From Ignavibacteriales bacterium (GTDB taxonomy: Bacteria; Bacteroidota; Ignavibacteria; UBA10030; UBA6906), in assembly GCA_037441705.1 (NCBI GenBank), contig JBBIRR010000037.1, positions 1 to 38,341 on the forward strand: a stretch of DNA of 38,341 nucleotides, written 5' to 3'. The stretch's first letter is position 1. The number at the start of each line of letters is the position of its first letter. The notes beneath the pieces are model-generated. The model saw nothing but the letters and a program-made list of their open reading frames with translations, had not been told where the DNA came from and did not search any database. Below are positions 86 through 32,765 of this stretch, in pieces. A program made the translations under genes and the position numbers.

Positions 86-114
86 TTCAGATTCTCGACA
101 CGTTTTCGTATTTT
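86..114 (+). promoter_or_regulatory. putative sigma70-type promoter for the response regulator (possibly leaderless transcript)
   Basis: TTCAGA (86-91), 17 bp, TATTTT (109-114). ATG at 120 lies 5 nt after the -10, with no Shine-Dalgarno. Confidence 0.35.
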
Positions 115-119
115 TGGTC

Positions 120-800
120 ATGTACATACTCGTCATCGAAGATCAGAAAAAAGTCGCCGCTGCTTTGAAGGAAGGACTCGAGCAGCAGGACTACACTGTC
201 ACGGTTGCGCCAAGCGGCGAGGAGGGGTTCTTTCTGCTGCATGCGCAGCCGTTTGATCTGGTCATCCTTGACCTTGGTCTTCCGAGACACGACGGCCTCG
301 AGATTCTCAAAATGCTGCGCGAGGAGAAGATGCACGTGCCCGTCCTTATCCTCACCGCACGTGACTCGATAGAGGACCGCGTCGAAGGTCTCGAGGCCGG
401 GGCTGATGACTACATGGTTAAGCCTTTTGCGTTCCCTGAATTGCTCGCGCGTGTACACTCATTGCTGAGGCGAAGCGCGGAAAAGGAAGAAGCACTCCTG
501 CAGATCAAAGATCTGGTCTTCGATCGTGCAACGCGCCGAGTGACGCGTAACGGACAGCGAATCTCCCTGACCGCAAAAGAGCTGGAACTCCTGGAGTATC
601 TTCTCCTCAGGAAGAATACCGTCGTAACCCGCGAGATGCTTGCCCGCGATGTGTGGAGGGCAACCTCGCGCGCAACACCTCTGGACAATGTGATTGACGT
701 GCATATTACACATCTCCGAAAAAAGATAGACATCTGCGAGCCAAAGCTGCTTCACACAATCCGTGGCGTAGGGTTCATCCTGAGCGAAACGAAGCCATGA
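120..800 (+). CDS. OmpR/PhoB-family DNA-binding response regulator (CusR/heavy-metal-like)
   Basis: Receiver motifs ILVIED, DLVILDLGLP (phospho-Asp), LTARD, GADDYMVKPF; winged-helix end NVIDVHITHLRKKID...LHTIRGVGF. ATG 120 preferred over TTG 114. Confidence 0.95.
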   Translation: MYILVIEDQKKVAAALKEGLEQQDYTVTVAPSGEEGFFLLHAQPFDLVILDLGLPRHDGLEILKMLREEKMHVPVLILTARDSIEDRVEGLEAGADDYMVKPFAFPELLARVHSLLRRSAEKEEALLQIKDLVFDRATRRVTRNGQRISLTAKELELLEYLLLRKNTVVTREMLARDVWRATSRATPLDNVIDVHITHLRKKIDICEPKLLHTIRGVGFILSETKP

Positions 801-2173
801 AGCTGTTCAAGCACATTCGTGTCCGGCTGGCGGCATGGAATATCCTGGTCTTTGGCGGCATTCTCGCGCTGTATGCAGTCGGTACGTCGTGGTTCTTTCT
901 TTCCACCCTGAGCCGTCAGCTTGATGAGAGTTTGATGGAGGAGTTGGAGATGGCTGACCAGATGTTGTTTCCACTCCGGCCGGGTGACTACCTCGTTGAT
1001 TCCCACCCGGCGGACCCGAAGAGACATGAGCACTTCATCGAACTTTGGTCGCCCGACGGACGACTTCTGTACCGCAGCAAGATGCTCGGATCGCGCACGC
1101 TCGGCGGCCCGCCCGATACATCGGAGTTCCGCGGGGTGGTACGGACGGTAGTCCTCGATGACGGCTCGCGCATGCGCGTAGCGTCGAAACTTCACGTTGC
1201 TTCGACACCTCTCACCCTCCTTCGCCTTGCGGTTAACGAGGAGGATTATCTCGGCACGGTTCATCGCTTCATCAATGTTCTCATGGTCGCAATCCCGGTG
1301 GGCCTGCTCCTTGTCAGCGTGAGTGCCTACTGGCTGGCGCGGAACGCCTTGAGGCCTGTGGACTGGATGACATCCGCAGCCCAACGCATCACGGCCGAAC
1401 GACTGAACGAGAGACTCCGCGTGTTGAACCCCGATGATGAGCTTGGTCGACTTGCCGGCACGTTCAACGAACTGTTGGGCCGGATAGAGCATGCGTTCGG
1501 GCAGTTGCGGCAGTTCACCTCGGATGCATCCCATCAACTGCGAACCCCTCTGACTGCGATGCGCAGCGTTGGCGAAGTGGCCCTTCAGAAAAGTCGAACC
1601 CCGGAAGAATACCGCGAGGTTATAAGCAGCATGCTGGAGGAAAGCACGCGCCTCACGCAGCTCGTCGACAACCTGCTGTTTCTTTCCCGGACCGATGCGC
1701 AGAAGCATTTGTTGCATTGTGAACGGCTGGATGCCCTGGAGCTTGCGCACGAGGTCGCCGCGATGATGCACGTCCTTGCCGAGGAAAAATGCCAGCAGCT
1801 CAACGTTGTGGGCGAAACGGGCATCATCATCTCCGCCGACCGTTCGTTGCTGTGTCACGCCCTGATGAACGTGATTGATAATGCCATCAAGTTCTCTCCT
1901 GAAGCCGCCACAACGATTGTTGCCGTGAACAGACAGGATGACTCGTGTGTCATATCCGTAACCGATTCGGGCCCAGGCATCCCGCCAGAAGCACGCGAAA
2001 AGATATTCGAACGATTCTACCGAATTGACCCTAACGGCTCAGCCGGCAGTGGACTTGGGCTTGCAATTGCGAGCTGGGCCGTCGAAATCAACAACGGCAC
2101 GATCACCGTTCGTCCTCATGAACCTTCCGGCTCGACGTTCCTCATCACACTTCCGTGCGCAGACCCACCTTAA
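797..2173 (+). CDS. membrane sensor histidine kinase (2 TM, HAMP, HisKA, HATPase; CusS-like)
   Basis: Two hydrophobic helices flank a periplasmic domain; HAMP (DDELGRLAGTFN); H-box DASHQLRTPL; N-box NVIDNAIKFS; G1 DSGPGI; F FERFYR; G2 GSGLGLAI. ATGA overlap with the regulator. Confidence 0.95.
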   Translation: MKLFKHIRVRLAAWNILVFGGILALYAVGTSWFFLSTLSRQLDESLMEELEMADQMLFPLRPGDYLVDSHPADPKRHEHFIELWSPDGRLLYRSKMLGSRTLGGPPDTSEFRGVVRTVVLDDGSRMRVASKLHVASTPLTLLRLAVNEEDYLGTVHRFINVLMVAIPVGLLLVSVSAYWLARNALRPVDWMTSAAQRITAERLNERLRVLNPDDELGRLAGTFNELLGRIEHAFGQLRQFTSDASHQLRTPLTAMRSVGEVALQKSRTPEEYREVISSMLEESTRLTQLVDNLLFLSRTDAQKHLLHCERLDALELAHEVAAMMHVLAEEKCQQLNVVGETGIIISADRSLLCHALMNVIDNAIKFSPEAATTIVAVNRQDDSCVISVTDSGPGIPPEAREKIFERFYRIDPNGSAGSGLGLAIASWAVEINNGTITVRPHEPSGSTFLITLPCADPP

Positions 2174-2195
2174 GCAACCTTAAGGAAATCTTAAG
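2169..2195 (+). promoter_or_regulatory. triple CTTAAG direct repeat, PmrA/QseB-like OmpR-family binding site upstream of the cytochrome gene
   Basis: CTTAAG at 2169-2174, 2179-2184 and 2190-2195 (periods 10 and 11 bp). The last two form CTTAAG-N5-CTTAAG, matching the YTTAAK-N5-YTTAAK PmrA-type box. Confidence 0.6.
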
Positions 2196-2408
2196 TTGCA
2201 CCAGCGATGAATTCTTACGAGATTTTGAGTGTAGAAAATTGAAACAGTTGCTCTTCAGAATTCAGAAAACCAGCTCTTTTTCATCCCCACTCACTGTTCT
2301 GCAGGCTTCGTAGTTCGCTTCATCCCTTCGATTTACCCCAAGGACTCGCTCCCGCGGACAGATTGTGGGATCAGAGCATCAGATGAACATTCCATGAAGG
2401 AGAAGAAT

Positions 2409-4295
2409 ATGAAGCTGACTTTACGATTTCTCGTCCTCATCGGACTCGTTGCGGTGAGCGCTACGATCATGTTTGCGCAAACCTACCAGGGCACACAGTA
2501 CTGCCAGTTGTGTCACACCGCTGTCTACAACCAGTGGAACACGACACTGCATGCCAAGATCCATCTCCGCACCGATACGGTGTCGGTTCGACCGTTAGCG
2601 GCGTTCACACGCGGCGACACCCTGAGCATGGGTGCCAGTTACAACAACGCGAAGGTCATCCTTCGCAGAAGCGGAAACGACTTCTTCGCCCGTGTCGGTA
2701 TCGGCGGGCAGGAGTACCGAATCGCATTCACGTATGGCTGGGGCTACAAACAACGATATCTTGTGAAGATTGACACCAGCTACTACATGCTGCCGATTCA
2801 ATACAACCTCGCCAAGTACCTGGACAACAGCAGCGGCTCGTGGGTGACGTACAATCCCGGCAATTGGTTCAATGCCGATGGCACCGTCAAACCGATCAAC
2901 AACGCGTTCCGCGCGAAGTCGTGGGACAAGAACTGCATGGGATGCCATGTCACCGGAGGTCGTGTGCAGATGGTGGTTGCCGGGAACGACACATCCTGGA
3001 AGGCCACCTGGGCCAACAACAGCTCCGATCTCAACATCACGGTCGGCTGTGAATCCTGCCACGGACCTTCCACGGGCGGTGCAGGGGCAGGACATCAGAT
3101 GAACCCGACCAATCTGCTCAGCAAACAGTCAAAGATAGAAGTATGCGGGCAGTGCCACAATCGAGCAAGCTCCTGGCGCGGCGCGGGATTGGTCGGAACA
3201 CATGAGTACAACAAGAATGAACTTGATGGTACCTACTTCAATCCCGCGGACACGACACGCCGCCTGAACACGTTCATGAACTTCAATCTGCCGCCCAATT
3301 CCCCCGGAGGCCGAGGCACATGGGTGGTGGAGTCTGTTCCGCGACAACATCATCAGCAGTATCACGACATGCTCGGCTCGGCGCACTACACCAACCCCTT
3401 CGTGGAAATGACGTGCTTCACCTGCCATACGTCGCACAAACCGACGCCCAACAAGAAACTCATTGTGGATTCTCTCGTGGTAGGGACGTTCCGCTTCAGA
3501 GTCAGCGATGAAGACAATACCCTGTGTCTCGCATGCCATGCGACTCATGGCCCGTTTGCGGCGATCCAGAGAGAGTGGGTGCAGAACCCTGTCACCTATC
3601 GCGATTCGATTGCACGATACGTCAATCTCCACACAAAGCATAACGTGTACGACCCGACGAACACGCAGAACACCGGCGGCGGAGGCAGGTGCTCGAAATG
3701 CCATATGACGATGACCGCGATAACGGCAAAAGCCTTTGATATCTCCACACACACATGGGGCGTTATCACGCCCAACGCAACGCTGCGCTATTCAACGATC
3801 GGCACGCCTTCGCTCGGCATGATCAACACCTGCGCGGCAAGCTGCCATCGCAATCCCTCCGGTCCAACGGCAAACGTGCCGTCCTTCGGCGTGGGAACCG
3901 ATCCCAACTTAAGCGACTGGCGTGAGCCGACCGATTTGGCCCTTGCCGATACATTGTGGCGATACTGGCGCTTGTGGGGCTTCACCAGCGTGAAGGAGAT
4001 TGCGACGACAGTGCCCGCAGAGCACTCCCTCTCGCAGAACTATCCAAATCCGTTCAATCCCTCAACGAAAATCGTAGTGAACATCGCACGGAAGGATCGC
4101 GTGCTACTGACCATCTACAACGTGATCGGTCAGGAGGTTGTACGATTGATGGATGGCGAGTACAACGCAGGCAGGTACGAGGTTACCTGGAACGGAAAAG
4201 ACTATTTCGGCAGGACGGTCGCCACGGGTATGTATGTTTACAGACTTGAGGTCGGAACCTTCACCGCCAGCAAGAAGATGCTCATGATCAAGTAG
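2409..4295 (+). CDS. secreted multiheme c-type cytochrome (c554/c552-like N-terminus) with T9SS type A C-terminal sorting domain
   Basis: Signal peptide MKLTLRFLVLIGLVAVSATIMFA|Q. Heme motifs CQLCH, CMGCH, CESCH, CGQCH, CFTCH, CLACH, CSKCH, plus CAASCH. C-terminus SQNYPNPFNPST...WNGKD...ASKKMLMIK. ATG 2409 has an AAGGAG RBS (alternative ATG 2394). Confidence 0.9.
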   Translation: MKLTLRFLVLIGLVAVSATIMFAQTYQGTQYCQLCHTAVYNQWNTTLHAKIHLRTDTVSVRPLAAFTRGDTLSMGASYNNAKVILRRSGNDFFARVGIGGQEYRIAFTYGWGYKQRYLVKIDTSYYMLPIQYNLAKYLDNSSGSWVTYNPGNWFNADGTVKPINNAFRAKSWDKNCMGCHVTGGRVQMVVAGNDTSWKATWANNSSDLNITVGCESCHGPSTGGAGAGHQMNPTNLLSKQSKIEVCGQCHNRASSWRGAGLVGTHEYNKNELDGTYFNPADTTRRLNTFMNFNLPPNSPGGRGTWVVESVPRQHHQQYHDMLGSAHYTNPFVEMTCFTCHTSHKPTPNKKLIVDSLVVGTFRFRVSDEDNTLCLACHATHGPFAAIQREWVQNPVTYRDSIARYVNLHTKHNVYDPTNTQNTGGGGRCSKCHMTMTAITAKAFDISTHTWGVITPNATLRYSTIGTPSLGMINTCAASCHRNPSGPTANVPSFGVGTDPNLSDWREPTDLALADTLWRYWRLWGFTSVKEIATTVPAEHSLSQNYPNPFNPSTKIVVNIARKDRVLLTIYNVIGQEVVRLMDGEYNAGRYEVTWNGKDYFGRTVATGMYVYRLEVGTFTASKKMLMIK

Positions 4296-4329
4296 ACAGC
4301 GGCACCATCTCATCTTGATCCTTTCAAGC

Positions 4330-4365
4330 AACCCCGACTGCAGCAGCTTTGCGGTCGGGGTTTTT
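4330..4365 (+). terminator. rho-independent terminator of the cytochrome gene
   Basis: AACCCCGACTGCA / TGCGGTCGGGGTT stem followed by a T-run. Confidence 0.8.
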
Positions 4366-4399
4366 GTGTTGATAGCACAGAGTCTCTCAATCCTCTCAG

Positions 4400-4432
4400 A
4401 AAAAAATGCCCGGTCCTTCCAGGGCCGGGCAT
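4400..4432 (-). terminator. rho-independent terminator of dnaE-trxA
   Basis: ATGCCCGGTCCT / AGGGCCGGGCAT stem with A7 on its left (U-tail on the minus strand). Confidence 0.8.
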
Positions 4433-4456
4433 CACCGTGCACATCAGGTCTTGACC

Positions 4457-10809: not shown

Positions 10810-13800
10810 TCACTTCATGAGCAGCATCTTGCCGCTGAACGCCTTCCCCGTTGTCGTCGCGAACCGGGCAATGTACATGCCCGTAGCGACGTTGATGCCG
10901 CTGTTATTCTTCCCATCCCAGACGAAGAAATAGCGTCCAGGCTCCAGCGTCCCGACGAATACCGTCCGCACTTCTTCGCCCAGAATGTTGTAGACCTTCA
11001 GGGAGACATCCGCCGTCTGCGGCACAGCGATCGGTAAGGTCGTCGTCGGATTGAACGGATTCGGGAAGTTATTGCCGAGCGCGAACTCCTTCGGCAGAAT
11101 GGAGTTCAACACTTCTCGAACGGCTTCCTCCGTCCCCACAACTACCTTGAGTATTTTGCTTCCCGTCGGTAAATCGAATCTATACACCGGGTCGCTTCGA
11201 AGATCGGCGAATTTTGCCTGCTGCTCATCAATAAGGAAGACTTTCAGATGAGCAGGGATATCGGCAACTCCGTCGAAGGTCAGCTTCAAGTGGTTGCGGA
11301 AGGGTGAGCGAACCGTCATCTCCCATACTTCAAGCTGTTCCACCGCCGGCCGGAAGTCGGATGCGAACTCGCTGTACGCGCGATCCCATTCGGACCGATT
11401 GAAGGCAATGGATGGAATCTCGACAAAGCCGCGCGGCTTGCGATACTCGAAGCGATCCAGGCCCGCGCTCGCATCCCGCCGGACGCCGAACGACATCGAG
11501 CTGTCGGTGATGCCCGCCACTTCGAATGTCATGCCGACAACCCACTCGCCTTCGTTGCGTGCGTATGTCGGCTTGCCCAACGGAGACGTCGTGAACGAGC
11601 CGTACGGGATCTTCAGCGTCGCAAGACTCTCGGCGTTGAAGAAGTAATATCCTGCGTAAGGTACCATCGAGTTTGACGTCGAGAATGTTCCGTTGAATCC
11701 GTAGATAGGATCGAGGATACCGTTGATCGCGCGGACGTCATTCCATAGTACGGCACTCGTGTAGGGGTTAGTAATGATGTTCCATCCCCGCTGCAACGGA
11801 ATGGTGACAACGAAGCTGTTCGTGTCGAGCGGGGCGCTGGGCACCGAAACGTTGCTGATGGTCCACGGACCCTTCTTCAACACCCAGAATGCCCTTCCCG
11901 TCTGGAGGTTGAACGCGGGGTCATTGGCGTTGAATGCAACATAGTAGTTCTCTGCCGCGCCGTTGTCTCGATACACAACCCAGTCGACATTCTGCGTCCC
12001 GCCTAACAACTGATCCAGACGAATGTTGTTGCGCGAAGGATCACCCGGAAATCCGACCAACCGGTAGTCGCTCGGCAAATAGTCTCCCGGCGATTCCCGC
12101 GTCGGATAGGCAACGGTTGTGGCGAGCGTGTACGACGACGGATAGAGAGGCTGGATCGTGAAGACTTTTGCTCGCGAGTACTCGCCTGTTCCGCGCGGGT
12201 TCGTTGCCCGCACACGCCAGAAGTACGTTGCGCCGCGCTGCAACACGGGCGGCCCGATCGTCATCGTGGTAACGGTCAGTGTGGAATCTTCGAAGACCAA
12301 TCCGGTGAAACCCGCATCGGTTGCCACCTGCAACCGGTATGCAAGTGCCAGCGGCGTACTCGACCAGGAAAGCGTTGCGATCGGCGAATAGATTCGGCTG
12401 GAATCCGGCGGTCCGCCGAGAATCGGAGGCCGCGGCATGGGCACTTCGACCACGAAAGGTATCGTGTTGGACGGCCCGCCGCCCGGCTGCGCGTTGCTGA
12501 CCGAAATCGTTCTGCTTCCTGTGTCGGCCGTGACCCCAATCGTCACCGTCGCCCGGAGCTGCGTGGAATCATCTACCGTCAGTGCATTGACGGTGATGTT
12601 CGTTCCCATGTTCAAACTCGTCACGACGCTGTCAACGAAGTTCGAGCCGCGAACGGTGAGAAGAAGCGTGTCCAGTAAGTTTCCGATGGGCGGAGAAACG
12701 CTCACGATGCGCGGCACGGGATGGTTCACCTGGAACGCGTTACTCGTGCCCGATTGCGTTCCGCCTGTAGTCCGCGTCGCGGTAATACGGACGTTGCTCG
12801 CTGCCTGCCGCATGATGATGCGATGAATCAGCTCTCCGTTGTTGAACGTCGGCGTCACGCCTCCACCGGCAAGCAGTGTTCCCGTTGAGGTAATGGTAAC
12901 CGTTCCGGTGAAGTTTGCAATCAGATTATTGAACGCATCTCGCGCAGAAATGCGAATCGAGAACGGCACGATCGCAAGCTGCAAGCCGATGGCGCCGCCG
13001 TTTTCTGCTTCAACAAGAAACGTACTGAGCGGGCCGGTGATATTCGTGAGGTTGAACGTCGCCGGAGCTCCGATGGTGGGCGATGATGCCGTTACTGTGT
13101 ACGATCCTGCAATCGTGTTCGCACGAAACGCACTTGCAGTGGCAATCCCATTGCTTCCCGATTGCACAACAATCGTGGTAGCCCCGCCGGGGAACGACCC
13201 GCTCGGGCCCGTCGTCGGTGCACTGAACGTCACGTCAACGCCGCTGACGGGATTGCCGAAATTGTCTGTGACCAAAACACTAAATGCGGTATCGAACACC
13301 GTATTCACTACGGCAGTCTGCGTCCTTCCTGCGACAATGGTGATGGAACCGGCCGTTCCCGTCGTGTTCGTGAGACTGTAATTGACCGAATCGTTCAGCC
13401 CTTGCGCTTGACCCCGCACCGTGTAGCTGCCCGCGATGTTGTTCGCTCTGAACGGATTGGAAACGGCCATGCCGCTATCGTTCGTCAGCACCGAGTTCGA
13501 TCCTTCAAACGAACAGCTTGGCCCGTTGGATGGCGGCGTAAATGTGACAACGAGATTGGGAATGGGATTGCCGAACGTATCGCGAACCATTGCCTGCAGC
13601 CGAAGAGCGAACAGTGTGGTCACCGGCGCCGACTGCGGCGACCCCCCCGTTGCAATAATTGTGTGCGGAGAGGTTGCAACGTTCGTAAGATTGAAATCCG
13701 CCGGTTGTGTCACGCCATCGGTGGCAGCGCGAACCACATAGCGACCCGCAGAGGTGTTGGCAATAAACAGCGGAGAGGTCGCAAACCCGAAATCGTCTGT

Positions 13801-16800
13801 GCGTACGGTGTCAATCCCATTCTCGAACCTCCCGCTGGGACCCGTCAAGGGATACGTGAAGCGCACGAGGGCATTGGGGACACCGTTGCCCGCGCCGTCG
13901 CGCACAGCAACTCTCAGGAACGATGGGAACGGCGTATTGACGCGCGTCGTCTGATTGGTGCCGTCGATGGCAGTGATGGACGCGGCTGGCCCGGGAAGAT
14001 TTCGGAGATCATACCATGCCGTATCAGCGACGTTGGCGACAACCCCCTTCACCAGATACTGTCCCGCGTGAATGTTGGCGATGAACACCGCTGCGGTGGC
14101 AATGCCGTTCGTATCCGTCAGCATCGTATCCCTGTTAGCGAAGAATGTTCCGCTCGGTCCGCTTTGAGGAGGCGTGAGCCATCGAACGAGTGTGTTCGGT
14201 GTGCCGTTGAAGAACGTGTCCAACACCTCCGCCTGGAAATTGACAGGAAATGCCGTGCTGACCTGGGTTTGCTGCGGCGAACCGGCAATCTGACGAATAT
14301 GACGAGGAGGCCCGGCAAGGTTGCGCATGGCAAACTGCACCGGAGCAGACACGTTCGGAGCGGATGCCGTCACGATGTACGCGCCTGCCCGTAGGCTCGC
14401 CGTAAATGCCGACGCTTCAGCTATCCCGTTAGTATCGGTTTCGACATCAGTGGCTGTTCCTCCGCTGGCCTGGAAAGTTCCTGTTGCGCCTCCACCCGGG
14501 GCTTCGAAATGAACATTCCTGCCGCGAACCGGATTCCCATTTGAATCACGCACCAGCACGCGGAAGCGAATCGGGAATGTTGTGTTCACCTGTACTGCCT
14601 GACCCGAACCCTGCAGGATCTGAATGCTTCCCGGAGGCCCGCTGAGATTCGTCAAGCTATAACTTGTCATCGGGTTCGTACCGCCAACAGCCGTGGCCGT
14701 CACCTGATAAGGCCCACCGGCGATGCTGTTCGCCGTAAACGGACGTGCCCTGGCCAGCCCGTTCTGATCTGTGCGAACCGTATCGATGCCGTTTTCGAAT
14801 GTGCCGCTCGGTCCCGACGTCGGTGGTGTGAATCGAACCAGCGCATTCGGCACAAGGTTGCCAAAGGCATCGCTCACTGTTGCTTCCAGATCAATGGGAA
14901 AGCGCGTCCCGACTTGGGCTGATTGACCCGACCCGCGCGTTGCAGCTATGCTTGATGGCGGAGCCGCGAGATTCGTCAGCGTGTAGAAGGCAGGCGACGG
15001 TGCACCCGTTACCGTGGCCGAAACGGTATATTGCCCTGCAATTGTATTCGCAACGGCAACAATCCGCGCCACGCCGCTGTCGTTTGTCGTCGCAGTACCG
15101 ACCCCGCTTGAAGGGAAATTACAGCTTGCGCCGGTGGACGGAGATGTGAACGTTACCGTCCGGTTGGGTACAGGGTTGCCGAACTGATCTCGCACCAGAG
15201 CCTGCAGCGGAATCGGAAATGTCGTGCCGACAATTGTAGATTGTGATGACGGTTCGATCGTCGAGATTGTTGCAGGCGAACCGGGGGTGTTCCGCAACTG
15301 ATATAGCGCCGGTGTTGCAACGCCCTGCACGGACGCCGTCACCTGATATGTTCCTGCAATGTTGTTCGCCGTAAACGTCGGCGCAACGGCAACGCCGTTC
15401 GTTCCGGTCAATACCTGATTGCTTCCGTTGAAGCTGCCGCTCGGACCGGAACTGGGCGCGAGGAACGTCACAATCACATTGGGAACGGGATTGCCCGATG
15501 AATCTCGCACAAGGGCTTTCATCGTATCGGGAAACGTTGTTGCGACCTGTGCCGTTTGCGGCGTTCCGCTCGTCGCAATGATCGTGTGGGGTGAACCGGG
15601 ATTGTTGGTGAGTGCGAAAGTCGCAGGCGTCGACACTCCCCCGACTGTTGCCGTAGCACTCCACTGACCCGCGCTCCCGTTGGCCGTCAGCACAGGTGCT
15701 TGAGCAATGCCGGCGTTGTCCGTTTGTGCGATATTCACGCCTCCGGCAAACGTTCCGCTGGGACCCGAGGTTGGAACATTGAACGTCACGGTCCGATTCG
15801 GAACAGGATTGTTGAACGTATCACGCACCACCACCGTGAGCCGTTGGGGGAAAGGCGTGTTCACTGTCGTAGCTTGCGGAGTGCCGGCCGTCGGAACGAT
15901 TGTGTCGGGCACATCGGCAAGATTGGTCAGCGAGAAGTTCGCCGGCGTTCCGACGCCCGCAACGTTGGCTGTAACAACAAACGCCCCGGCTCGTTCGTTT
16001 GCCGTAAACGCAACCGCCGTAGCAACGCCATTGGCATTGGTCGTCGCCGTTTCCACGCCGCCGGCAAATGTCCCGCTCGGTCCGCTCAGTGGAGGCTTGA
16101 CGAATTGGACCAGCACATTCGGAACGGGATTGCTGAAAGCATCACGAACAGTCACTTCGAAATTGATTCCGTACGTTCTGCGAACAACAGCGGATTGTAC
16201 TGCGCCTGCAGTTGCCGTTACGGTTGCTGGGGCGCCAGGATCGTTCCTCAGAGAAAAAATCGCGGGAGCCGTAACACCCGAGACGCGCGCCTCCGCCGCC
16301 CAGCTGCCTGCAGCGGTGTTCGCTCGTACCGTTGTAGTTGCAACGCCGGAGGCATTGGTATTGACCGTGTAGGTCGTCGAGTCGTTTGCAAATCGCCCGC
16401 TTGCGCCCGTGAGCGGAGACGTGAACGTCACGGCTACGTTCGGCACAGGGTTCCCTGCCTGATCGCGTACGGTTGCCTGAAGGCTCAGCGGAAAGAGTGT
16501 GTTGACCGTCGTGGTTTGGTTACTGCCGCCGGTGGTCTGAATGACCGACGGCGCGGCTGCGGTGTTGGTGAGTGCGTACGAAGCCGAATCGGGCACTCCG
16601 GGCGCTGAGGCCTTCACCGTGTAGCTGCCCGCAATGAAGTTGGCAGTAAATTGCTGTGCCGTCGCCACGCCCGTCGAATCCGTCGTTCCCGTGTTCACAT
16701 TACCGAGAAACGTTCCCGACGGCCCTGAAGCCGGACGCGTCCAGGTCACTACAATATTGCGCAGTGGGTTACTGAATTGATCCATTACTCGTGCCCTGAA

Positions 16801-19794
16801 ATTCGTGGCAAACGGGGTCCCGATTTGAGTGCTTTGAGGTGTCCCCGCAGTTGCAAGAACTCTCGCTGCAGGACCAGGATTATTGGTAAGAGAGAATTGA
16901 GCCGGTGTGGAAACGCCCGGTGCCGACGCAGACACCTGATACGAGCCTGCAAGCGTATCTGCCGTAAACGCCGGGGCCGTTGCAATGCCGCTGGCGTTCG
17001 TGCGGACTTGCGCTGTTCTGCTCGTGCCAAACTTTCCGCTCGGCCCGCTTGATGGGGCCGTGAACGTTACCGTCGTATCCACAATCGGATTGTTGTTTGC
17101 ATCGCGAACAACAACAGCCAGGTTTGTGGCGAACGGGGTGTTCACCGTTGTAGATTGTGGATGACCAGCCACGATCGTGATGCTGCCCGGAGGACCGGCA
17201 AGATTGGTGAGCGAAAATGGAGCTGCAATGGAGTCACTGCCGGTGAACACCTTGCCGAACACGGTGTAACTTCCCGCGATGGTGTTGGCGGTAAACTGCG
17301 GCGCCGTGGCAATTCCCCCGGTTGTCGTTCTGACGGTATCAATCCCGCCGGCAAACGTGCCGCTTGCGCCGGTACCGGGCCGCGTAAACTTCACAAGCAC
17401 ACCGGGCACAGCGTTGTTTGCTCCGTCTCTGACTGCTACCTGAAGGTTCGTGGCAAACGGCGTCCCGACTTGAGTGGACTGTGGTGTACCGGCAGTCGCA
17501 ACAATCTGTGCGGGGGGCCCTGGAGTGTTAGTGAGATTGAAGACCGCCGGTGTTTGAGGGCCGGACGTTGCTGCCGTAACAACATACGATCCAGCAATGA
17601 AGTTTGCCACGAAAACTGCTGCCGTCGCAGCCCCGGAGGTATCGGTGAAAGCACTATCTACGTTATTGAAGAACGTCCCGCTTGGTCCACTGATCGGACG
17701 CGTAAACCGCACCAGCACATTGCTGAGCGGATTGCCAAATGTATCGCGCACAGTCGCTTTGAAATTGACCGGAAACGCCGTGCTGATTTGCGTGCTCTGT
17801 GGTGTGCCTGCCGTCGCCAATATCTGTCGCGCAGGACCAGGAGTATTTGTGAGAGAAAACAACGCGGGCGTAGCAACTCCCGCAACTCGTGCTGTGTCTG
17901 AATACGATCCTGCTATCGTGTTGGCGGTAAATGCCGTGGCCCGCGCAACACCGGCCGTATCCGTCACGACGTTGATGGAGCTAAGGCCGCCGGCAAATGT
18001 CCCTCGTGGGCCGGTTGTAGGTGCTGCAAATGTAACCGTCACCGCAGGCACACGATTGCCCGCTGCGTCCAGCACCGTTGCCTGAAGTAGGGTCGCAAAT
18101 GTGGTGTTCACCAACGCACTCTGCGGCGTTCCCGCCGTCGCCGTAATCGTTGCAGGCGGCCCCGGAGTAATGATGAAGGGATTGCTTACCGCCGAGGTAA
18201 GACCTGTGCTCGACGCAGTCAACACTTTTTCACCGACGAGGTTGATGCTCAAGTTACTGAATGTCGCGAGCCCCGATGCGTTTGTGTTTTGTGTCGTCGT
18301 GCCGCTCAAGGTTCCCGTACCGGAACTCAATGTCATCAACACGGCCACGCCGCTCTGGCTAACGTTGTTGCTGAACGTATCCTGCAACTGCACGGTCACG
18401 GGCGGACTGATGGACACGCCGGAGACGGTGTTCGTCGGCTGCTGGACAAATACCACCTTCTTCGGAGCTGCGGCGCTCACCACAATGTTGCTCGATGTCA
18501 CCGGCGTCAGAACGGGAGAGCTTGTAAACTGAATCGAGATGGTTCCTGCGACGTTGTGTCGCAAATCGGTGAAGGTAACCAGGCCGCCGGACGCTGTTCG
18601 CGTCACTGTACCTTGCAGCGTTCCGCTTCCTGCACTGCGTGCGGCGGTCACCACAGTCGAGTTGTCTGCCGTTACAAGGTTGCCGAACTGATCTTCAATC
18701 CGAACAACGGGCTGCTGGGCAAAGACAACGCCGGCCGTGGCTGTTGCCGATGGTTGCGTCTGAATTCCAAGCCGCGTCGCAGCAGCGTGACTGATAACAA
18801 ACGATGCACTCACGGCGGAATCTAACCCCGCGCTTGTTGCCTTGAGCTGCTTCGTTCCTGCAAGATTGATACTCAGATTGGAGAACGTCGCAAGTCCGGA
18901 GCTGTTCGTGTTTTGCGTCGTCGTTCCGCTCAGCACGCCGGTCCCCGAGTGAATTGCCATCACAACAGAGCGAACGCCCCCGACATTGTTGCCGAGGGAA
19001 TCTTGCACCTGGACGGTGATGGGCGGCGTAATGATCGTGCCGGCAGTATCGTTCGTTGGTTGCTGCACAAAAACCAATCGTGCTGCAACATTGGGGTTCA
19101 CGATGATATTCGCAGAGGTATCGGGCGTGAGCGTCGGACTGCTCGTAAAGCGAATGTTGATCGTGCCCGCAACATTGTGGCGCAAGTCGGTAAAGGTCAC
19201 AATGCCTCCGACAGCAAGGCGAGAGGTAGTGCCCTGCAAAGTACCTGTCCCAAGCAGCCGCGTTGCGGTAACCGTCGTGGTGTTGTCGCTCGTTACGAGG
19301 TTGCCGTTCGCGTCTTCGATGCGAACAATCGGCTGCTGTGGAAAGGGAACGCCTGCCGTCGCCACCGCCGAGGGTTCCTGGGAAATGGTCAGGCGTGCAG
19401 CCGCGCCGGGAATCACTGTAATCTTACCCGAAGGTACCTGGATGAGAAGTCCCGATGCCGCGCGAATGTATGCCGACCCAACACTGTGCCCCGTGAACAA
19501 CGCGCTCTTTCCGTCCGCGCTCGGAACAAGATCCCCCGGAACAACCCCTCCCGTCAGCGAATCAAGGCTCCATGTCGCAGCCACATTCGCAACAAACACT
19601 CCGGTGGCCGTCCGGGAAATCGCATAAACCCTGAGCGTGTCGCCTGACGCGAGGTTCTGGGCTGGAACGACTGTTCCGAGGCCGTCCGCTCTCGTTTCCA
19701 CACGAACCTGTGTGGCTTGCGCAAACGCACTCCCCACACAAACGGATGAGAGCATTACCCACGCGAAGGCCCATCGTTGTAATCGCTTTACCAT
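10810..19794 (-). CDS. giant (~2990 aa) T9SS-secreted surface protein/adhesin with tandem invasin/Big-like Ig repeats, IPT/FN3-like domains and type A CTD
   Basis: Signal peptide MVKRLQRWAFAWVMLSSVCVGSAFA|Q with GAGAGGG upstream. ~107-aa repeats with the VRD-x-xGNPVP motif; T/A/G/V/P-rich; WRVRATN FN3-like motif; C-terminus GNNFPNPFNPTT...WDGKN...FSGKMLLMK. The start is one of 19794, 19800 or 19815. Confidence 0.9.
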   Translation of the reverse strand: MVKRLQRWAFAWVMLSSVCVGSAFAQATQVRVETRADGLGTVVPAQNLASGDTLRVYAISRTATGVFVANVAATWSLDSLTGGVVPGDLVPSADGKSALFTGHSVGSAYIRAASGLLIQVPSGKITVIPGAAARLTISQEPSAVATAGVPFPQQPIVRIEDANGNLVTSDNTTTVTATRLLGTGTLQGTTSRLAVGGIVTFTDLRHNVAGTINIRFTSSPTLTPDTSANIIVNPNVAARLVFVQQPTNDTAGTIITPPITVQVQDSLGNNVGGVRSVVMAIHSGTGVLSGTTTQNTNSSGLATFSNLSINLAGTKQLKATSAGLDSAVSASFVISHAAATRLGIQTQPSATATAGVVFAQQPVVRIEDQFGNLVTADNSTVVTAARSAGSGTLQGTVTRTASGGLVTFTDLRHNVAGTISIQFTSSPVLTPVTSSNIVVSAAAPKKVVFVQQPTNTVSGVSISPPVTVQLQDTFSNNVSQSGVAVLMTLSSGTGTLSGTTTQNTNASGLATFSNLSINLVGEKVLTASSTGLTSAVSNPFIITPGPPATITATAGTPQSALVNTTFATLLQATVLDAAGNRVPAVTVTFAAPTTGPRGTFAGGLSSINVVTDTAGVARATAFTANTIAGSYSDTARVAGVATPALFSLTNTPGPARQILATAGTPQSTQISTAFPVNFKATVRDTFGNPLSNVLVRFTRPISGPSGTFFNNVDSAFTDTSGAATAAVFVANFIAGSYVVTAATSGPQTPAVFNLTNTPGPPAQIVATAGTPQSTQVGTPFATNLQVAVRDGANNAVPGVLVKFTRPGTGASGTFAGGIDTVRTTTGGIATAPQFTANTIAGSYTVFGKVFTGSDSIAAPFSLTNLAGPPGSITIVAGHPQSTTVNTPFATNLAVVVRDANNNPIVDTTVTFTAPSSGPSGKFGTSRTAQVRTNASGIATAPAFTADTLAGSYQVSASAPGVSTPAQFSLTNNPGPAARVLATAGTPQSTQIGTPFATNFRARVMDQFSNPLRNIVVTWTRPASGPSGTFLGNVNTGTTDSTGVATAQQFTANFIAGSYTVKASAPGVPDSASYALTNTAAAPSVIQTTGGSNQTTTVNTLFPLSLQATVRDQAGNPVPNVAVTFTSPLTGASGRFANDSTTYTVNTNASGVATTTVRANTAAGSWAAEARVSGVTAPAIFSLRNDPGAPATVTATAGAVQSAVVRRTYGINFEVTVRDAFSNPVPNVLVQFVKPPLSGPSGTFAGGVETATTNANGVATAVAFTANERAGAFVVTANVAGVGTPANFSLTNLADVPDTIVPTAGTPQATTVNTPFPQRLTVVVRDTFNNPVPNRTVTFNVPTSGPSGTFAGGVNIAQTDNAGIAQAPVLTANGSAGQWSATATVGGVSTPATFALTNNPGSPHTIIATSGTPQTAQVATTFPDTMKALVRDSSGNPVPNVIVTFLAPSSGPSGSFNGSNQVLTGTNGVAVAPTFTANNIAGTYQVTASVQGVATPALYQLRNTPGSPATISTIEPSSQSTIVGTTFPIPLQALVRDQFGNPVPNRTVTFTSPSTGASCNFPSSGVGTATTNDSGVARIVAVANTIAGQYTVSATVTGAPSPAFYTLTNLAAPPSSIAATRGSGQSAQVGTRFPIDLEATVSDAFGNLVPNALVRFTPPTSGPSGTFENGIDTVRTDQNGLARARPFTANSIAGGPYQVTATAVGGTNPMTSYSLTNLSGPPGSIQILQGSGQAVQVNTTFPIRFRVLVRDSNGNPVRGRNVHFEAPGGGATGTFQASGGTATDVETDTNGIAEASAFTASLRAGAYIVTASAPNVSAPVQFAMRNLAGPPRHIRQIAGSPQQTQVSTAFPVNFQAEVLDTFFNGTPNTLVRWLTPPQSGPSGTFFANRDTMLTDTNGIATAAVFIANIHAGQYLVKGVVANVADTAWYDLRNLPGPAASITAIDGTNQTTRVNTPFPSFLRVAVRDGAGNGVPNALVRFTYPLTGPSGRFENGIDTVRTDDFGFATSPLFIANTSAGRYVVRAATDGVTQPADFNLTNVATSPHTIIATGGSPQSAPVTTLFALRLQAMVRDTFGNPIPNLVVTFTPPSNGPSCSFEGSNSVLTNDSGMAVSNPFRANNIAGSYTVRGQAQGLNDSVNYSLTNTTGTAGSITIVAGRTQTAVVNTVFDTAFSVLVTDNFGNPVSGVDVTFSAPTTGPSGSFPGGATTIVVQSGSNGIATASAFRANTIAGSYTVTASSPTIGAPATFNLTNITGPLSTFLVEAENGGAIGLQLAIVPFSIRISARDAFNNLIANFTGTVTITSTGTLLAGGGVTPTFNNGELIHRIIMRQAASNVRITATRTTGGTQSGTSNAFQVNHPVPRIVSVSPPIGNLLDTLLLTVRGSNFVDSVVTSLNMGTNITVNALTVDDSTQLRATVTIGVTADTGSRTISVSNAQPGGGPSNTIPFVVEVPMPRPPILGGPPDSSRIYSPIATLSWSSTPLALAYRLQVATDAGFTGLVFEDSTLTVTTMTIGPPVLQRGATYFWRVRATNPRGTGEYSRAKVFTIQPLYPSSYTLATTVAYPTRESPGDYLPSDYRLVGFPGDPSRNNIRLDQLLGGTQNVDWVVYRDNGAAENYYVAFNANDPAFNLQTGRAFWVLKKGPWTISNVSVPSAPLDTNSFVVTIPLQRGWNIITNPYTSAVLWNDVRAINGILDPIYGFNGTFSTSNSMVPYAGYYFFNAESLATLKIPYGSFTTSPLGKPTYARNEGEWVVGMTFEVAGITDSSMSFGVRRDASAGLDRFEYRKPRGFVEIPSIAFNRSEWDRAYSEFASDFRPAVEQLEVWEMTVRSPFRNHLKLTFDGVADIPAHLKVFLIDEQQAKFADLRSDPVYRFDLPTGSKILKVVVGTEEAVREVLNSILPKEFALGNNFPNPFNPTTTLPIAVPQTADVSLKVYNILGEEVRTVFVGTLEPGRYFFVWDGKNNSGINVATGMYIARFATTTGKAFSGKMLLMK
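13030..18165 (-). repeat. 16 tandem diverged ~107-aa Ig-like repeats within the giant protein
   Basis: Hand count of 16 units of (AG)TPQS..V.T.F...L...VRD..GNPVP...V.F..P.SGPSG.F...AN..AG.Y.V.A...F.LTN; boundaries approximate. Confidence 0.85.
18170..19410 (-). repeat. A-B-A-B duplicated two-domain unit in the giant protein N-terminal region
   Basis: QQPIVRIEDANGNLVT...DLRHNVAGTI versus QQPVVRIEDQFGNLVT...DLRHNVAGTI; VFVQQPTN...TTQNTNxSGLATFSNLSINL occurs twice. Boundaries approximate. Confidence 0.8.
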
Positions 19795-20236
19795 ACGCAT
19801 CCCTCTCTGACTCATACGTTCACCTGAACACTCAACGGACAAGATCTCACCGATCTGTTGGGAGAAAGACTCATGGATTTTGTTTCGTAAGGCAGATTGC
19901 TTTTGGTTTGCACCGGAGATCACAAAGCGCAAGGAGAGGTCTATCTTGAAAATCCTATCGCGACCCTCCGCGAAACCACGTATTGCACGCCTCAACATAC
20001 GAAGAATTCGCGCATCAGTCAACGAATGCGAGGCTTCGTTTCGCTTCAACTTGTTTATACGCTAGGGCCACAGGACCGGATTTGTGACTCTCAGACCCAT
20101 CGTCACAAACCCCCTCCGCAGCGGACGCAGGCAAGCACCAACTCGCCGACCCGCAATCAGCAGGCTAGTGTGGAAGGCCCCCATTCCCCAAATACATACG
20201 ACGAAAGTGAACAGGCCGATCGAGAACCCCGACCGC

Positions 20237-21585: not shown

Positions 21586-22584
21586 TCATAGAATGGATTT
21601 CCAACCGCCGAATCGTTTCACGCCGCGCAGGAACCAGTAGAAGTACCAAAGCGGCAGCACGGCGTACGCTGCCGTATCGCGCACGCGCCAGAGTTTCACT
21701 GCATCCCTCTCCTGGAATTTGTATCGAAGAACGATGTGTGCCGCGAGCGCAACGCCTGCCGCGAGCCAGACCAGAACAACATTGCCCATCAATGCAGATG
21801 TGCACGCAATCAAGCCCGAAAGCACGAAGGCGAGACAGCTGTAGTGCATCGGCCGGCCGAACGAGAGACGCCCAACCTGCTTGCGCTCGATGTGCGTACG
21901 AAAGAGCCGCGGATGCTTCCTGTACAGCAGCGGATCAAACATGTAACGCTTGACATGCGCAAACGCACTCCCGGTTGTCGGGAACTGGATCGGATGCCAG
22001 GCAACGACATCCTCGGGCTGAAGTGCCGTGTAGCCGGCTTCAACGATCCGAAATCCGAGGTCGGCATCGTCACGAAAGAAGAGCCCCGTCTGTTGGTCGA
22101 AGAACGCCGGATCAAAGCCGCCGACGTTCATGACGACGTCGCGCCGGAAGAAGATCGCCGCAGTAACGAAACCCTGCCGCGACGCGTGAAGCTGCAGCGG
22201 ACGGTCGTTTCCGTCGATGAGCAGCGTTGTTTCGACGATACCCACGCGTGAGTCGGAAAAGTATGCGAGCGCCCTCTCCAGACAGTCGTTGCGAAGCACA
22301 ACGTCATCATCCATGCAGGCAACGATGGGCGCACACGCCCGCGCGAGTCCTGCATTACGGGCACGCGGAGGCCCCACGCGTTCGTTTTCAATCACATGCA
22401 ACACGAACGGAAATCTCGCTGCGCGAAGAAATTCCCTCGTAGTGTCGGTTGAGCCGTCATCCACAACGATCACTTCAAGGTCCGAGGCGGGAAGTGTCTG
22501 CTCACCAAGCGAGCCGAGGAGACGCCGGAGCAACTGTACGTGGTTGCGGGTAGGAATGACAACCGAGACACGACAGTTAGCCAC
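21586..22584 (-). CDS. GT2-family glycosyltransferase
   Basis: VSVVIPTRN, VIVVDDGSTD, ARNAG, MDDD (DxD), GGFD...DADLGFR. Confidence 0.92.
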   Translation of the reverse strand: MANCRVSVVIPTRNHVQLLRRLLGSLGEQTLPASDLEVIVVDDGSTDTTREFLRAARFPFVLHVIENERVGPPRARNAGLARACAPIVACMDDDVVLRNDCLERALAYFSDSRVGIVETTLLIDGNDRPLQLHASRQGFVTAAIFFRRDVVMNVGGFDPAFFDQQTGLFFRDDADLGFRIVEAGYTALQPEDVVAWHPIQFPTTGSAFAHVKRYMFDPLLYRKHPRLFRTHIERKQVGRLSFGRPMHYSCLAFVLSGLIACTSALMGNVVLVWLAAGVALAAHIVLRYKFQERDAVKLWRVRDTAAYAVLPLWYFYWFLRGVKRFGGWKSIL

Positions 22585-25672: not shown

Positions 25673-25679
25673 CGAAACT

Positions 25680-26516: not shown

Positions 26517-26527
26517 CAGGCACAAGG

Positions 26528-27223
26528 TCAGGTTTTGGTTGCTGCATCTTCAGCGCGACGCTTGCGCGCCACCAGCAAATACCCCAACGTGAGATCGGGA
26601 TTGTAAAAGAGTCTGTCGAAGAACTTTCCCACCACTTGAGCAGGCCCGAAGATCAGGCGTGCGGCATGTGTTCGCCACTTCCTGTCGGCATTGGGAAGAT
26701 AGACCATCAGCGCGAGCATCTGGGCGATCGTTGCAAACGCTCCGTACCGCTCATGCAGCGCCACAACTTCGAGATTGTTGTTTTCGCAGAGCAGCTCCAG
26801 CGCGTAGCGCGTAAAGCGGTAGTAATCGTGCGGCTTTTCATGGAGACACCACAGTTGCGGCGCGGTGACGATCATAACGCCGCCCGTTTTCAGCACGCGG
26901 CTGGCCTCCGACACAAACAGCTCGGGATGTCGGACATGTTCGATTGCCTGATTCGAAATCACGGTATCGAACGTCTCGGAACGAAACGGCAGACGCAAGG
27001 CATCGGCGCACACATCAACCTGCTTAGTCTTGTCGGTATCCACATCCACGCCAATGTACGCCTGCGCGCGTTTGATGAACAATTTCTCGTATGGCTTCGC
27101 GCCGCAACCGATATCGAGGATCATGCCGCCCGCATAGCGCGCTGCATGCTTCATCGCCTGCGCAAGCGATTCCTGTTCAAGCTGTACGGGGTTCCTGAAG
27201 TAGTCAATGATCATCGTGGCCAT
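26528..27223 (-). CDS. class I SAM-dependent methyltransferase
   Basis: LDIGCGAKPY, DALRLPF, FDTVISNQAIEH, RVLKTGG, PHDYYRFT. Start uncertain (27235, 27223 or 27214). Confidence 0.9.
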   Translation of the reverse strand: MATMIIDYFRNPVQLEQESLAQAMKHAARYAGGMILDIGCGAKPYEKLFIKRAQAYIGVDVDTDKTKQVDVCADALRLPFRSETFDTVISNQAIEHVRHPELFVSEASRVLKTGGVMIVTAPQLWCLHEKPHDYYRFTRYALELLCENNNLEVVALHERYGAFATIAQMLALMVYLPNADRKWRTHAARLIFGPAQVVGKFFDRLFYNPDLTLGYLLVARKRRAEDAATKT

Positions 27224-27235
27224 AGTCTCCGTCAA

Positions 27236-32721: not shown

Positions 32722-32765
32722 GCGTGCGTCACCAGTTCCCTTCCTTACTACACGGGGTACCTCTC

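Follow-up and report, generated by a model that had tools for sequence, protein, structure and literature searches.

The stretch of DNA analysed here, referred to below as the window, comprises 38,341 nucleotides of an Ignavibacteriales genome (GenBank assembly GCA_037441705.1, contig JBBIRR010000037.1), and close to its beginning it encodes an octaheme c-type cytochrome that ends in a type IX secretion system (T9SS) sorting domain of type A (Table 1). Two in-frame start codons are available for the gene, ATG 2394, which opens a forward-strand frame of 633 residues (2394..4295) with five extra residues, and ATG 2409, and we prefer the latter because of its spacing from the AAGGAG sequence and because homologues align from this methionine, which is the alignment start (M1) in 50 of 51 homologue rows. 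The original prediction, made from the nucleotide sequence without database searches, already ascribed to the gene a terminator of its own, and a terminator-like hairpin is indeed found downstream of the stop codon. The fusion of a cytochrome core to a sorting domain is real and no assembly artefact, since contigs from two further public runs extend over the gene and its core-tail junction, one with a contig of 33,027 nt that covers 2100-4450 with 12 differences and the other, a third run, with a contig of 674 nt that bridges 3504-4177. In three metagenome runs the contig depth rises 4- to 20-fold across positions 3996-4074 at the start of the tail (the QNYPNPFNPST region), a stretch that many other genes for proteins with a C-terminal sorting domain (CTD) in those communities have as well.

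The protein contains seven CxxCH motifs and one CX3CH motif, and all 16 of its cysteines fall within these eight heme motifs, whereas 2000 shuffled versions of the protein contain on average 0.01 and at most 1 CxxCH. All eight sites are invariant or at least 92% conserved across the 51 homologues of the alignment, which are 42-80% identical, and this includes the unusual eighth site, where CX3CH is found in 48 of 51 homologues and an eighth CxxCH in the other three. The spare histidines that the original prediction regarded as possible distal ligands are likewise conserved: among the 22 histidines in total, H48, H343, H408, H411 and H448 are invariant outside the motifs, and H52, H314 and H326 are found in 92-96% of the homologues. 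By its motifs and their conservation the protein is therefore a multiheme cytochrome. An AlphaFold2 model computed on the 51-sequence alignment (mean predicted local distance difference test, pLDDT, 86.7; predicted template-modelling score 0.76), which is heme-free and includes signal peptide and tail, places a beta-sheet domain between the first and second heme motifs and a helix at residues 2-21, with pLDDT below 50 at 19-22. The N-terminus, MKLTLRFLVLIGLVAVSATIMFA/QTY, resembles by eye a signal for Sec export and signal peptidase I, so that an N-terminal Sec signal of the kind expected of T9SS cargo is present by inspection, in line with the original prediction. The predicted MFA/Q cut would leave an N-terminal glutamine, which fits the 'Q-rule' of Bacteroidetes, that is glutamine after the signal cut, for which a Q-value of 77% is given for Ignavibacterium album (PMC5837995).

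Table 1. Features of the cytochrome gene and of the genes and repeats upstream of it (window coordinates; aa, residues of the 628-residue product)
Feature	Position	Strand	Remarks
Gene for the octaheme c-type cytochrome with its T9SS type A tail	2409..4295	+	628 aa plus stop
Shine-Dalgarno-like AAGGAG	2397..2402	+	6 nt ahead of ATG 2409
Signal peptide, aa 1-23	2409..2477	+	Assigned by eye: basic n-region with K2 and R6, hydrophobic core 7-20, small residue at -1
Heme motif 1, CQLCH, aa 32-36	2502..2516	+	C32 invariant; C35 and H36 at 92%
Beta-sheet domain between hemes 1 and 2, aa 71-147	2619..2849	+	Modelled strands at a pLDDT of about 92-97
Heme motif 2, CMGCH, aa 176-180	2934..2948	+	Invariant; aligns with heme 2 of OcwA
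Heme motif 3, CESCH, aa 214-218	3048..3062	+	
Heme motif 4, CGQCH, aa 246-250	3144..3158	+	
His-His pair H314/H315	3348..3353	+	Aligned with HH 281/282 of OcwA; 92% and 88% conserved
Heme motif 5, CFTCH, aa 336-340	3414..3428	+	
Heme motif 6, CLACH, aa 373-377	3525..3539	+	
Heme motif 7, CSKCH, aa 428-432	3690..3704	+	
Heme motif 8, CAASCH (CX3CH), aa 475-480	3831..3848	+	C475, C479 and H480 invariant in 51/51 rows
T9SS type A C-terminal sorting domain, aa 545-628	4041..4292	+	TIGR04183 and predicted fold
Intrinsic-terminator-like hairpin, then TTTTGTGTT	4330..4362	+	14-bp stem with 8 GC pairs
OmpR-type response regulator, heavy-metal-regulator-like	114..800	+	Pfam Response_reg and Trans_reg_C
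Sensor histidine kinase, heavy-metal-sensor-like	797..2173	+	Pfam HAMP, HisKA and HATPase_c
Three CTTAAG copies, spacing 10-11 bp	2169..2195	.	At the kinase stop codon; candidate regulator binding site

The identity of the tail as a CTD is supported by sequence as well as by predicted structure. Residues 545-624 pass the TIGR04183 model with 34.5 bits (cut-off 23), a check that had been proposed together with the original prediction, and the same stretch passes PF13860 FlgD_ig with 29.8 bits (cut-off 27). In the model six beta strands are listed at 553-626, giving a predicted Ig-like beta-sandwich, and a Foldseek search with the tail finds the CTD of PorU (6za2_A, with an rmsd, or root-mean-square deviation, of 3.5 A over 100 columns), the CTDs of NucA and RemA bound in T9SS complexes (8glk_D and 8gl6_D; target-based template-modelling score TMt 0.62), and furthermore the CTD of RgpB (7pq4) and FlgD. 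The tail part of the family profile, when searched against PDB sequences, also matches PorU's own CTD at 2e-4. Two glycines, G574 and G588, are invariant in the tail alignment and K623 is at least 90% conserved, and a functionally important glycine and a conserved lysine in the last strand are described for CTDs (PMC11285876). The window tail is accordingly like type A CTD cargo such as RgpB, NucA, RemA and PorU in its TIGR04183 match and predicted beta-sandwich, but it differs from such cargo in that a multiheme cytochrome is not named as cargo in the T9SS literature searched and in that the window's host has no detectable PorK/L/M/N. As the original prediction noted, the same type of tail is carried by two other proteins of the window, a giant Big_1/invasin-type adhesin of 3079 aa (10810-20049, reverse strand) and an M14 carboxypeptidase (32724-36521, forward strand).

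The cytochrome core is most similar to OcwA (PDB 6I5B), a terminal reductase on the cell surface of the Gram-positive Thermincola potens, which is its best match by profile as well as by fold. While a phmmer search with the window protein itself finds OcwA at E 1.2e-8, the family profile searched against all PDB sequences finds it (6i5b) at E 3.5e-26 over 324 profile positions (172-495), with 6qvm at 1e-15 and NrfA-type nitrite reductases at about 1e-10. The structure comparison called for in the original prediction gave a similar picture, in that Foldseek ranks 'Outer Cell Wall Cytochrome OcwA' first among PDB entries (E 2.3e-11, 507 columns), 'Undecaheme cytochrome from S-layer of Carboxydothermus ferrireducens' third (3.7e-7) and the octaheme sulfite reductase MccA fourth. 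OcwA is described as a surface-exposed nine-heme protein built from c554-like and NrfA-like heme cores, with an extra beta-sheet domain that it has in common with MccA, and with two open-coordination hemes, each lying under a His-His pair, of which one is found over the distal face of heme 2; the protein is active on iron oxides, electrodes, shuttles and flavins, nitrite and hydroxylamine, although its turnover of nitrite is very slow with a kcat of 1 per min (PMC6703420). In both proteins an N-terminal heme is followed by a beta-sheet domain, motifs 2-6, 8 and 9 of OcwA align with window motifs 2-8, so that the CX3CH of the window protein is aligned with the last CxxCH of OcwA, and the histidine pair at heme 2 of OcwA is conserved in the window protein (Table 1). 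In sequence the invariant H408 and H411 (HxxH) align near HH 380/381 of OcwA, a protein with its second pair at heme 5 and with His/Met ligation of its last heme, and the heme-free model gives no axial ligands for the window protein. The two proteins differ in that OcwA has nine hemes and no T9SS tail, its seventh motif being without a counterpart in the window protein, whereas the latter has eight hemes with CX3CH as the last motif, a T9SS tail and a diderm host, and they are only 19% identical in the structural alignment. We can nonetheless conclude from profile and predicted fold that the window protein is an OcwA-like octaheme relative that falls short of the nine CxxCH motifs of OcwA, and an extracellular location is proposed for both.

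The second-best relative by profile and fold is the undecaheme S-layer cytochrome of Carboxydothermus ferrireducens (6QVM), which is called OmhA and described as a surface cytochrome up-regulated on ferrihydrite (PMC7829351); it differs from the window protein in having 11 hemes, a Gram-positive host and an association with the S-layer, and in lacking a CTD. The Shewanella decaheme cytochromes MtrC and OmcA have the same proposed job as the window protein, outward-facing and fed by a porin-cytochrome conduit, and Pfam PF22113 (MtrC/MtrF domains II/IV) matches the window protein with 35.9 bits (cut-off 30). Membership of the MtrC/OmcA family was however rejected, since TIGR03507 (OmcA/MtrC family) is absent among the matches of the window protein at E<=1, since there is no cysteine in the signal peptide or a lipobox, and since there are eight hemes and not ten; the heme core is, moreover, NrfA/c554-like in the window protein. 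In Shewanella the type II system exports MtrC and OmcA, both of which are lipoproteins.

A word-indexed search gave 480 relatives at E<=0.001 among 8000 candidates scored, with Ignavibacteria, Ignavibacteriales, Candidatus Kryptobacter, KSB1 or Bacteroidota as source names and with 'T9SS type A sorting domain-containing', 'CXXCH cytochrome' or 'hypothetical' as their sole labels, apart from a few automatic nitrite-reductase names. An exhaustive search with residues 1-538 against 1.84 billion cluster representatives gave 790 proteins at E<=1e-3, 280 at 1e-10 and 65 at 1e-30, and the family is present in 27 of 151 sampled genomes of the class and in 18 of 83 genera; the Protein Atlas holds only generic multiheme and barrel clusters and nothing further. 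A metagenome scan with the family alignment was discarded for context, as it was seeded on the CTD motif and nearly all of what it found were unrelated CTD proteins (matching residues ~500-628), and the locus L041 was its sole match to the cytochrome core (here and below, L numbers are loci, G numbers genomes, G000 being the window's genome, and C numbers contigs of G000).

The tail is mostly kept among homologues in the class, since 19 of 21 such homologues, which include a subfamily only 27-37% identical to the window protein, pass TIGR04183, while one reaches 22.9 bits and one is without a listed match. In a broader survey the best 150 cluster representatives were narrowed to the 128 with a length of 480 aa or more; this type of tail is found in 21 with a hidden Markov model built from the family's own tails, lipobox-like N-termini in 35 with a regular expression, a C-terminal membrane anchor in 4 and none of these devices in 68, and TIGR04183 itself matches 15 of the 77 representatives short enough for scanning. 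A FastTree tree was built from 113 cores, after 16 of 129 rows had been left out because their core matches were short, and on it the tailed rows cluster, with 4 label changes against a mean of 20.4 in shuffled labels and 0 of 500 shuffles as low, and 25 of 28 lipobox rows sit in the other half of the tree. The same core thus occurs with different surface anchors in different lineages, which supports an extracytoplasmic role at the cell surface. Some homologues (P0051, P0063, P0065, P0068, P0071, P0073, P0078 and L143:7938-10634) are considerably longer, 890-980 aa, and most of those from P0051 to P0078 have an added PF09459 domain (ethylbenzene-dehydrogenase-like, of heme-b type) between core and T9SS tail.

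The window's genome, which is of 3.83 Mb in 92 contigs and rated 100% complete, encodes a good part of the machinery that such a protein would need. TIGR04183 has 137 matches in it, and the components of the translocon and the attachment complex are all found above their cut-offs, namely SprA (a single 2346-aa frame with one stretch at 880.6 and another at 206.8 bits; cut-off 200), PorV (256.4; 250), PorU (966.8; 420), PorZ (335.7; 260) and PorQ (251.3; 220). SprA is furthermore present in all 41 sampled class genomes. As regards heme maturation, for which the original prediction had asked whether Ccs or Ccm genes are present, four Cytochrom_C_asm genes are found, two of them 1.1 kb apart on contig C17, and gene sizes of 246 and 761 aa suggest that they are of the CcmC/CcmF type, from which periplasmic attachment of the hemes can be inferred.

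The question how electrons would reach a cytochrome on the cell surface is answered by the linkage of the tailed cytochrome to a porin-cytochrome island. The original prediction had seen no adjacent partner for the cytochrome, and while it is true that there is no gene for a porin or a quinol oxidase adjacent to it in the window, an island encoding such components is found on contig C34 of the same genome, and the orthologue stands beside or inside an electron-export island in seven other genomes. In L014 (which shares its contig with L138), L019, L025 and L143 the genes directly downstream of the orthologue, on the same strand, encode a heme-less protein of 435-463 aa, then a 12- or 14-heme cytochrome, and then a 5-9-heme protein with a CxxxxCH/CxxCH domain, and in L014/L138, L025 and L143 the orthologue is preceded by a second, nine-heme T9SS-tailed cytochrome of 714-941 aa. 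In G137, G171 and G004 it stands at the edge of a single island of 15-18 kb, with the order T9SS cytochrome, sigma-54 regulator (confirmed by Pfam in G137 alone), tailed propeller protein (in G137 and G171 but not G004), 18-heme cytochrome, cytochrome b561, 17-heme cytochrome, Rieske protein and cytochrome b (G137 and G171), 11-heme cytochrome (G137 and G171), 3-4-heme cytochrome, heme-less protein, 10-14-heme cytochrome and lipoprotein cytochrome. The island of the window's genome (C34:19945-38033; locus L026) is syntenic with those of G137, G171 and G004 and encodes a 769-aa protein in which 13 heme motifs are joined to a b-type cytochrome, a cytochrome with 19 hemes, one of NrfH-like type, NrfC/NrfD-like proteins, a Rieske protein, cytochrome b, a cytochrome with 11 hemes, the heme-less protein, a cytochrome with 12 hemes and a lipoprotein cytochrome with 8 hemes.

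The heme-less protein models as 24 strands of all-beta structure (pLDDT 89) and finds only outer-membrane barrels in Foldseek (381 matches at E<=0.001, led by the FimD/PapC ushers and AlgE), and it is accordingly predicted to be a 24-strand outer-membrane barrel. The 12-heme protein finds 3ov0 at E 2e-17, a 'cytochrome c family protein' of 318 residues that we take to be GSU1996 of Geobacter, the other matches of the 12-heme protein being of the c7/PpcA type, and the lipobox cysteine of the lipoprotein cytochrome is invariant in 44 homologues; searched against PDB sequences, neither the barrel family nor the lipoprotein cytochrome family gave anything significant. The cluster on C34 has hence the same layout of barrel, 12-heme c7-type cytochrome and lipoprotein cytochrome as the porin-cytochrome complex of Geobacter (OmbB-OmaB-OmcB), but the window cytochrome is not among these three parts and is instead an extra, T9SS-tagged cytochrome that is encoded beside them in some genomes. 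The island further has modules suggested by their sequences to be quinol-oxidising, among them CbcL-like and NrfH-like ones, types that are linked to quinol oxidation. In related organisms, porin-cytochrome complexes have been reported for M. roseus and I. album (PMC7399161). The barrel gene is found in 96 of 151 class genomes. Close orthologues occupy 12 loci in 11 further genomes of the class, and 5 of these loci lie within or next to such an island while 1 has the regulator-kinase pair; among 19 loci from a collection of species genomes, many on short contigs, 3 have the barrel-cytochrome trio and 4 the regulator-kinase pair. The window's genome also encodes two more T9SS-tailed cytochromes with 8 CxxCH each on contig C10 (locus L002), one of 470 aa (72402-73814, reverse strand), which has no significant match among PDB sequences, and one of 711 aa (76519-78654, reverse strand), whose sole PDB sequence match is OcwA (E 4.2e-5) and which is the counterpart of the nine-heme tailed cytochrome that adjoins the orthologue in L014/L138, L025, L143, L145/L158 and L146.

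Upstream of the cytochrome gene the window encodes a response regulator and a histidine kinase. Both match heavy-metal sensor families best and nearly over their full length, yet below the cut-offs, with 222.7 bits for the regulator (TIGR01387; cut-off 279.2) and 266.4 bits for the kinase (TIGR01386, profile positions 4-456 of 457; cut-off 292.55). A response regulator is also found directly upstream of the orthologue in L009, L012, L016, L024 and L144, and the CTTAAG repeats downstream of the kinase gene recur in L009, L016 and L024. CTTAAG is found at only 116 places in the whole genome of 3.83 Mb, and 2169-2195 is the sole site where at least two copies are separated by 4-6 nt; the repeats are a candidate binding site of the adjacent regulator. 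The same positions also form a near-palindrome (GCAACCTTAAG ... CTTAAGTTGC), which makes an operator or an RNA hairpin possible. No sigma-54 promoter was found upstream of the cytochrome gene in the window, and a sigma-70 consensus scan gave 0 sites. A different regulator is paired with the tailed cytochrome at L156:4563-5900 (+) and L157:3778-5118 (+), where the cytochrome gene is divergent to one for a sigma-54-dependent (NtrC-type) response regulator, a pairing that is Pfam-checked in G137 alone and probable in G171; L157 moreover has a loose sigma-54-like TGGCAT-N5-ATGCA 55 nt upstream of the cytochrome start, whereas the window copy has no such motif.

From the motifs, the tail and the company that the gene keeps in related genomes we infer a path for the protein that comprises heme loading, export, a surface location, an electron donor, an acceptor and regulation. 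The precursor would be exported by Sec and relieved of its signal peptide, whereupon eight hemes would be attached covalently in the periplasm by the Ccm system. The folded holoprotein of ~72 kDa would then be recognised via its C-terminal beta-sandwich and cross the outer membrane via the SprA translocon with PorV, and the PorU/PorZ/PorQ attachment complex would cleave the tail, so that a cytochrome of ~62 kDa is fixed to the surface or released. There it would receive electrons from the trans-outer-membrane conduit encoded on C34 (24-strand barrel, 12-heme and lipoprotein cytochromes), which in turn would be fed by the quinol-oxidising modules, and it would pass them on to extracellular acceptors, for example minerals of Fe(III)/Mn(IV), humics, electrodes or shuttles. 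The conserved His-His pocket may perhaps confer activity on small soluble substrates too, and the heavy-metal-sensor-like two-component system next to the gene probably governs its expression by way of the CTTAAG repeats. That the protein is a holo-octaheme cytochrome exported by a T9SS-type route, functioning as an outward-facing terminal oxidoreductase and as the outermost redox protein of an electron-export chain, is the reading that we prefer on the basis of sequence and modelling, and we assign it a probability of roughly 0.6. The wider notion that a T9SS-type pathway without PorK/L/M/N is a general route in Ignavibacteria and allied members of the Fibrobacteres-Chlorobi-Bacteroidetes (FCB) group for folded, heme-loaded cytochromes of 60-70 kDa, which would form the outermost of two tiers of electron export and dock on a Geobacter-type conduit, we put forward more tentatively and with a little less than even odds in its favour. 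The observations made in the original prediction are hence confirmed, and its interpretation, a cytochrome matured with its hemes and then exported by T9SS as a redox enzyme or electron conduit, is supported in part.

A number of observations weigh against this reading, and the most serious of them concern the export machine. In studied T9SSs GldK/L/M/N form motor and ring, but while the T9SS core genes that the original prediction had asked for are present as far as SprA, PorV and PorU are concerned, profile searches detected neither GldK/L/M/N nor PorP/SprF in the window's genome, and phmmer searches of that genome with GldL/M/N from Bacteroidia gave no match. The genome thus has no recognisable counterpart of the PorK/N ring and the PorL/M motor. 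A match on C52 was rejected as GldK, both for its score of 110 bits against a cut-off of 350 and because it belongs to an FGE-sulfatase/thioredoxin protein with unrelated neighbours. GldM was moreover found in none of the 41 sampled class genomes, although the same model matches 10 of 41 genomes in a sample of the phylum, all 10 of them outside the class, and SprA without GldM is accordingly, as judged from these profile matches, a trait of the class. The motor and ring may be too divergent for recognition, or secretion may be powered differently in this lineage; in either case export in the lineage is putative, and the machine is best described as T9SS-like rather than as the canonical set. 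In addition, the tail reaches only 21.0 bits with Pfam PF18962 Por_Secre_tail, which has a gathering score of 27. Taken together with the FlgD_ig match above its own threshold, and with the cautious wording that T9SSs 'may also be present' in Ignavibacteriota (PMC11285876; PMC5837995), these facts could mean that the protein is a periplasmic cytochrome shuttling electrons, either because its C-terminal Ig-like domain is no export signal or because a system without PorKLMN is non-functional. We did not find any experiment on T9SS in Ignavibacteria in the literature searched. A periplasmic location is nevertheless quite unlikely in our view, since SprA is universal in the sampled class genomes and PorU, PorV, PorZ and PorQ are above their cut-offs in the window's genome, since 137 CTD-matching genes, including those of hydrolases and adhesins, are hard to explain without a working pathway, and since the tail fold matches CTDs bound in the translocon and the nearest characterised homologues are surface proteins.

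The remaining objections concern what the protein does at the surface. The template-modelling scores of the Foldseek alignment to OcwA are low (0.35/0.43, with an rmsd of 10 A), and as the model is heme-free and includes signal peptide and tail, we have judged fold similarity by rank and E-value and not by superposition; the eight hemes against nine in OcwA likewise limit the comparison. In the window's genome, furthermore, the cytochrome gene is not linked to the conduit, no cytochrome gene lies within roughly 9 kb at 6 of the 12 loci with close orthologues, and class-wide co-occurrence with the barrel was not found, as the barrel is present in 11 of 27 family-bearing genomes against 96 of 151 overall and as in family f4 tailed homologues occur in 14 of 16 genomes while none of the 16 has the barrel. 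The barrel gene is nonetheless present in 11 of the 12 genomes that have a close orthologue, the window's included, so the link holds for the clade of the window and not for the whole family. The missing linkage would suit a surface enzyme whose substrates are soluble, or a reductase that detoxifies metals, better than one that respires minerals; in such an enzyme one or two open-coordination hemes would reduce nitrite, hydroxylamine, other N or S oxyanions or toxic metal ions, and the metal-sensor-like system would switch it on. Such an enzyme is in agreement with the conservation of the His-His pair that lies over the open heme 2 in OcwA, with MccA and NrfA being the next structural and sequence relatives, with the families that kinase and regulator match best, and with the reduction of nitrite and hydroxylamine by OcwA (PMC6703420). 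It is in poor agreement with the very slow turnover of nitrite by the latter, with the orthologues in seven genomes that lie in or beside electron-export islands and with the scores of both two-component TIGR models, which are below their cut-offs, and an extracellular enzyme would anyway need the same electron supply; we therefore consider it rather unlikely. Multiheme cytochromes are reversible wires, and the same location and export route could in principle serve an inward flow, with Fe(II), a cathode, reduced humics or a partner cell as the source of electrons; the Rieske/cytochrome b and NrfCD-type modules of C34 could run either way. This direction of flow seems highly improbable, however, since the island holds CbcL-like and NrfH-like modules of the quinol-oxidation type and since the nearest characterised relatives, OcwA and the S-layer cytochrome of C. 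ferrireducens, have been described as reductases (PMC6703420, PMC7829351).

If electron export at the cell surface is indeed the function of the protein, the function class is a known one, and it is the T9SS export route and the architecture that are undescribed for such cytochromes. Surface delivery of outward-facing cytochromes is understood mainly for Shewanella and Geobacter, and T9SS cargo is known to consist of hydrolases, adhesins and motility proteins. The original prediction knew of no characterised example, and in agreement with this we found nothing in the literature searched, supplementary tables not covered, that links T9SS or its CTDs to multiheme cytochromes; the same holds for the passages searched in PMC3534657, PMC5596340, PMC7399161, PMC11495043, PMC5492636 and PMC7509429, likewise without their supplementary tables. 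Ignavibacteria, Kryptonia, KSB1 and related uncultured groups are on the other hand reported from anode biofilms and Fe(III)-dosed sludge (PMC7399161, PMC11495043). What is added here is the physical linkage of a tailed cytochrome to a conduit island and the class-wide occurrence of SprA without GldM, and it seems from the gene's sequence that the bacterium probably places respiratory cytochromes on its surface by a route so far undescribed for such proteins. A holo-cytochrome delivered by T9SS would, if this is true, represent a new export route for extracellular electron transfer, the cargo range of T9SS would extend to large proteins with covalently bound cofactors, and T9SS would be a respiratory secretion system beyond its export of hydrolases and adhesins. 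The combination of an OcwA-like core with a TIGR04183 tail would furthermore be a simple sequence marker of surface redox capacity in Ignavibacteria, Kryptonia, KSB1 and related groups, and SprA without GldM across the class makes the power source of secretion in this class a testable question.

As for the other contents of the window, genes for a thioredoxin, DnaE and ProS lie downstream of the cytochrome gene on the opposite strand, and a polysaccharide-synthesis cluster encoding glycosyltransferases, methyltransferases and a flippase is found further along (21586-29754, reverse strand). Elsewhere in the genome, contig C1 (216425-224892) holds three adjacent open frames that are very rich in heme motifs, with 34, 20 and 16 CxxCH, respectively.

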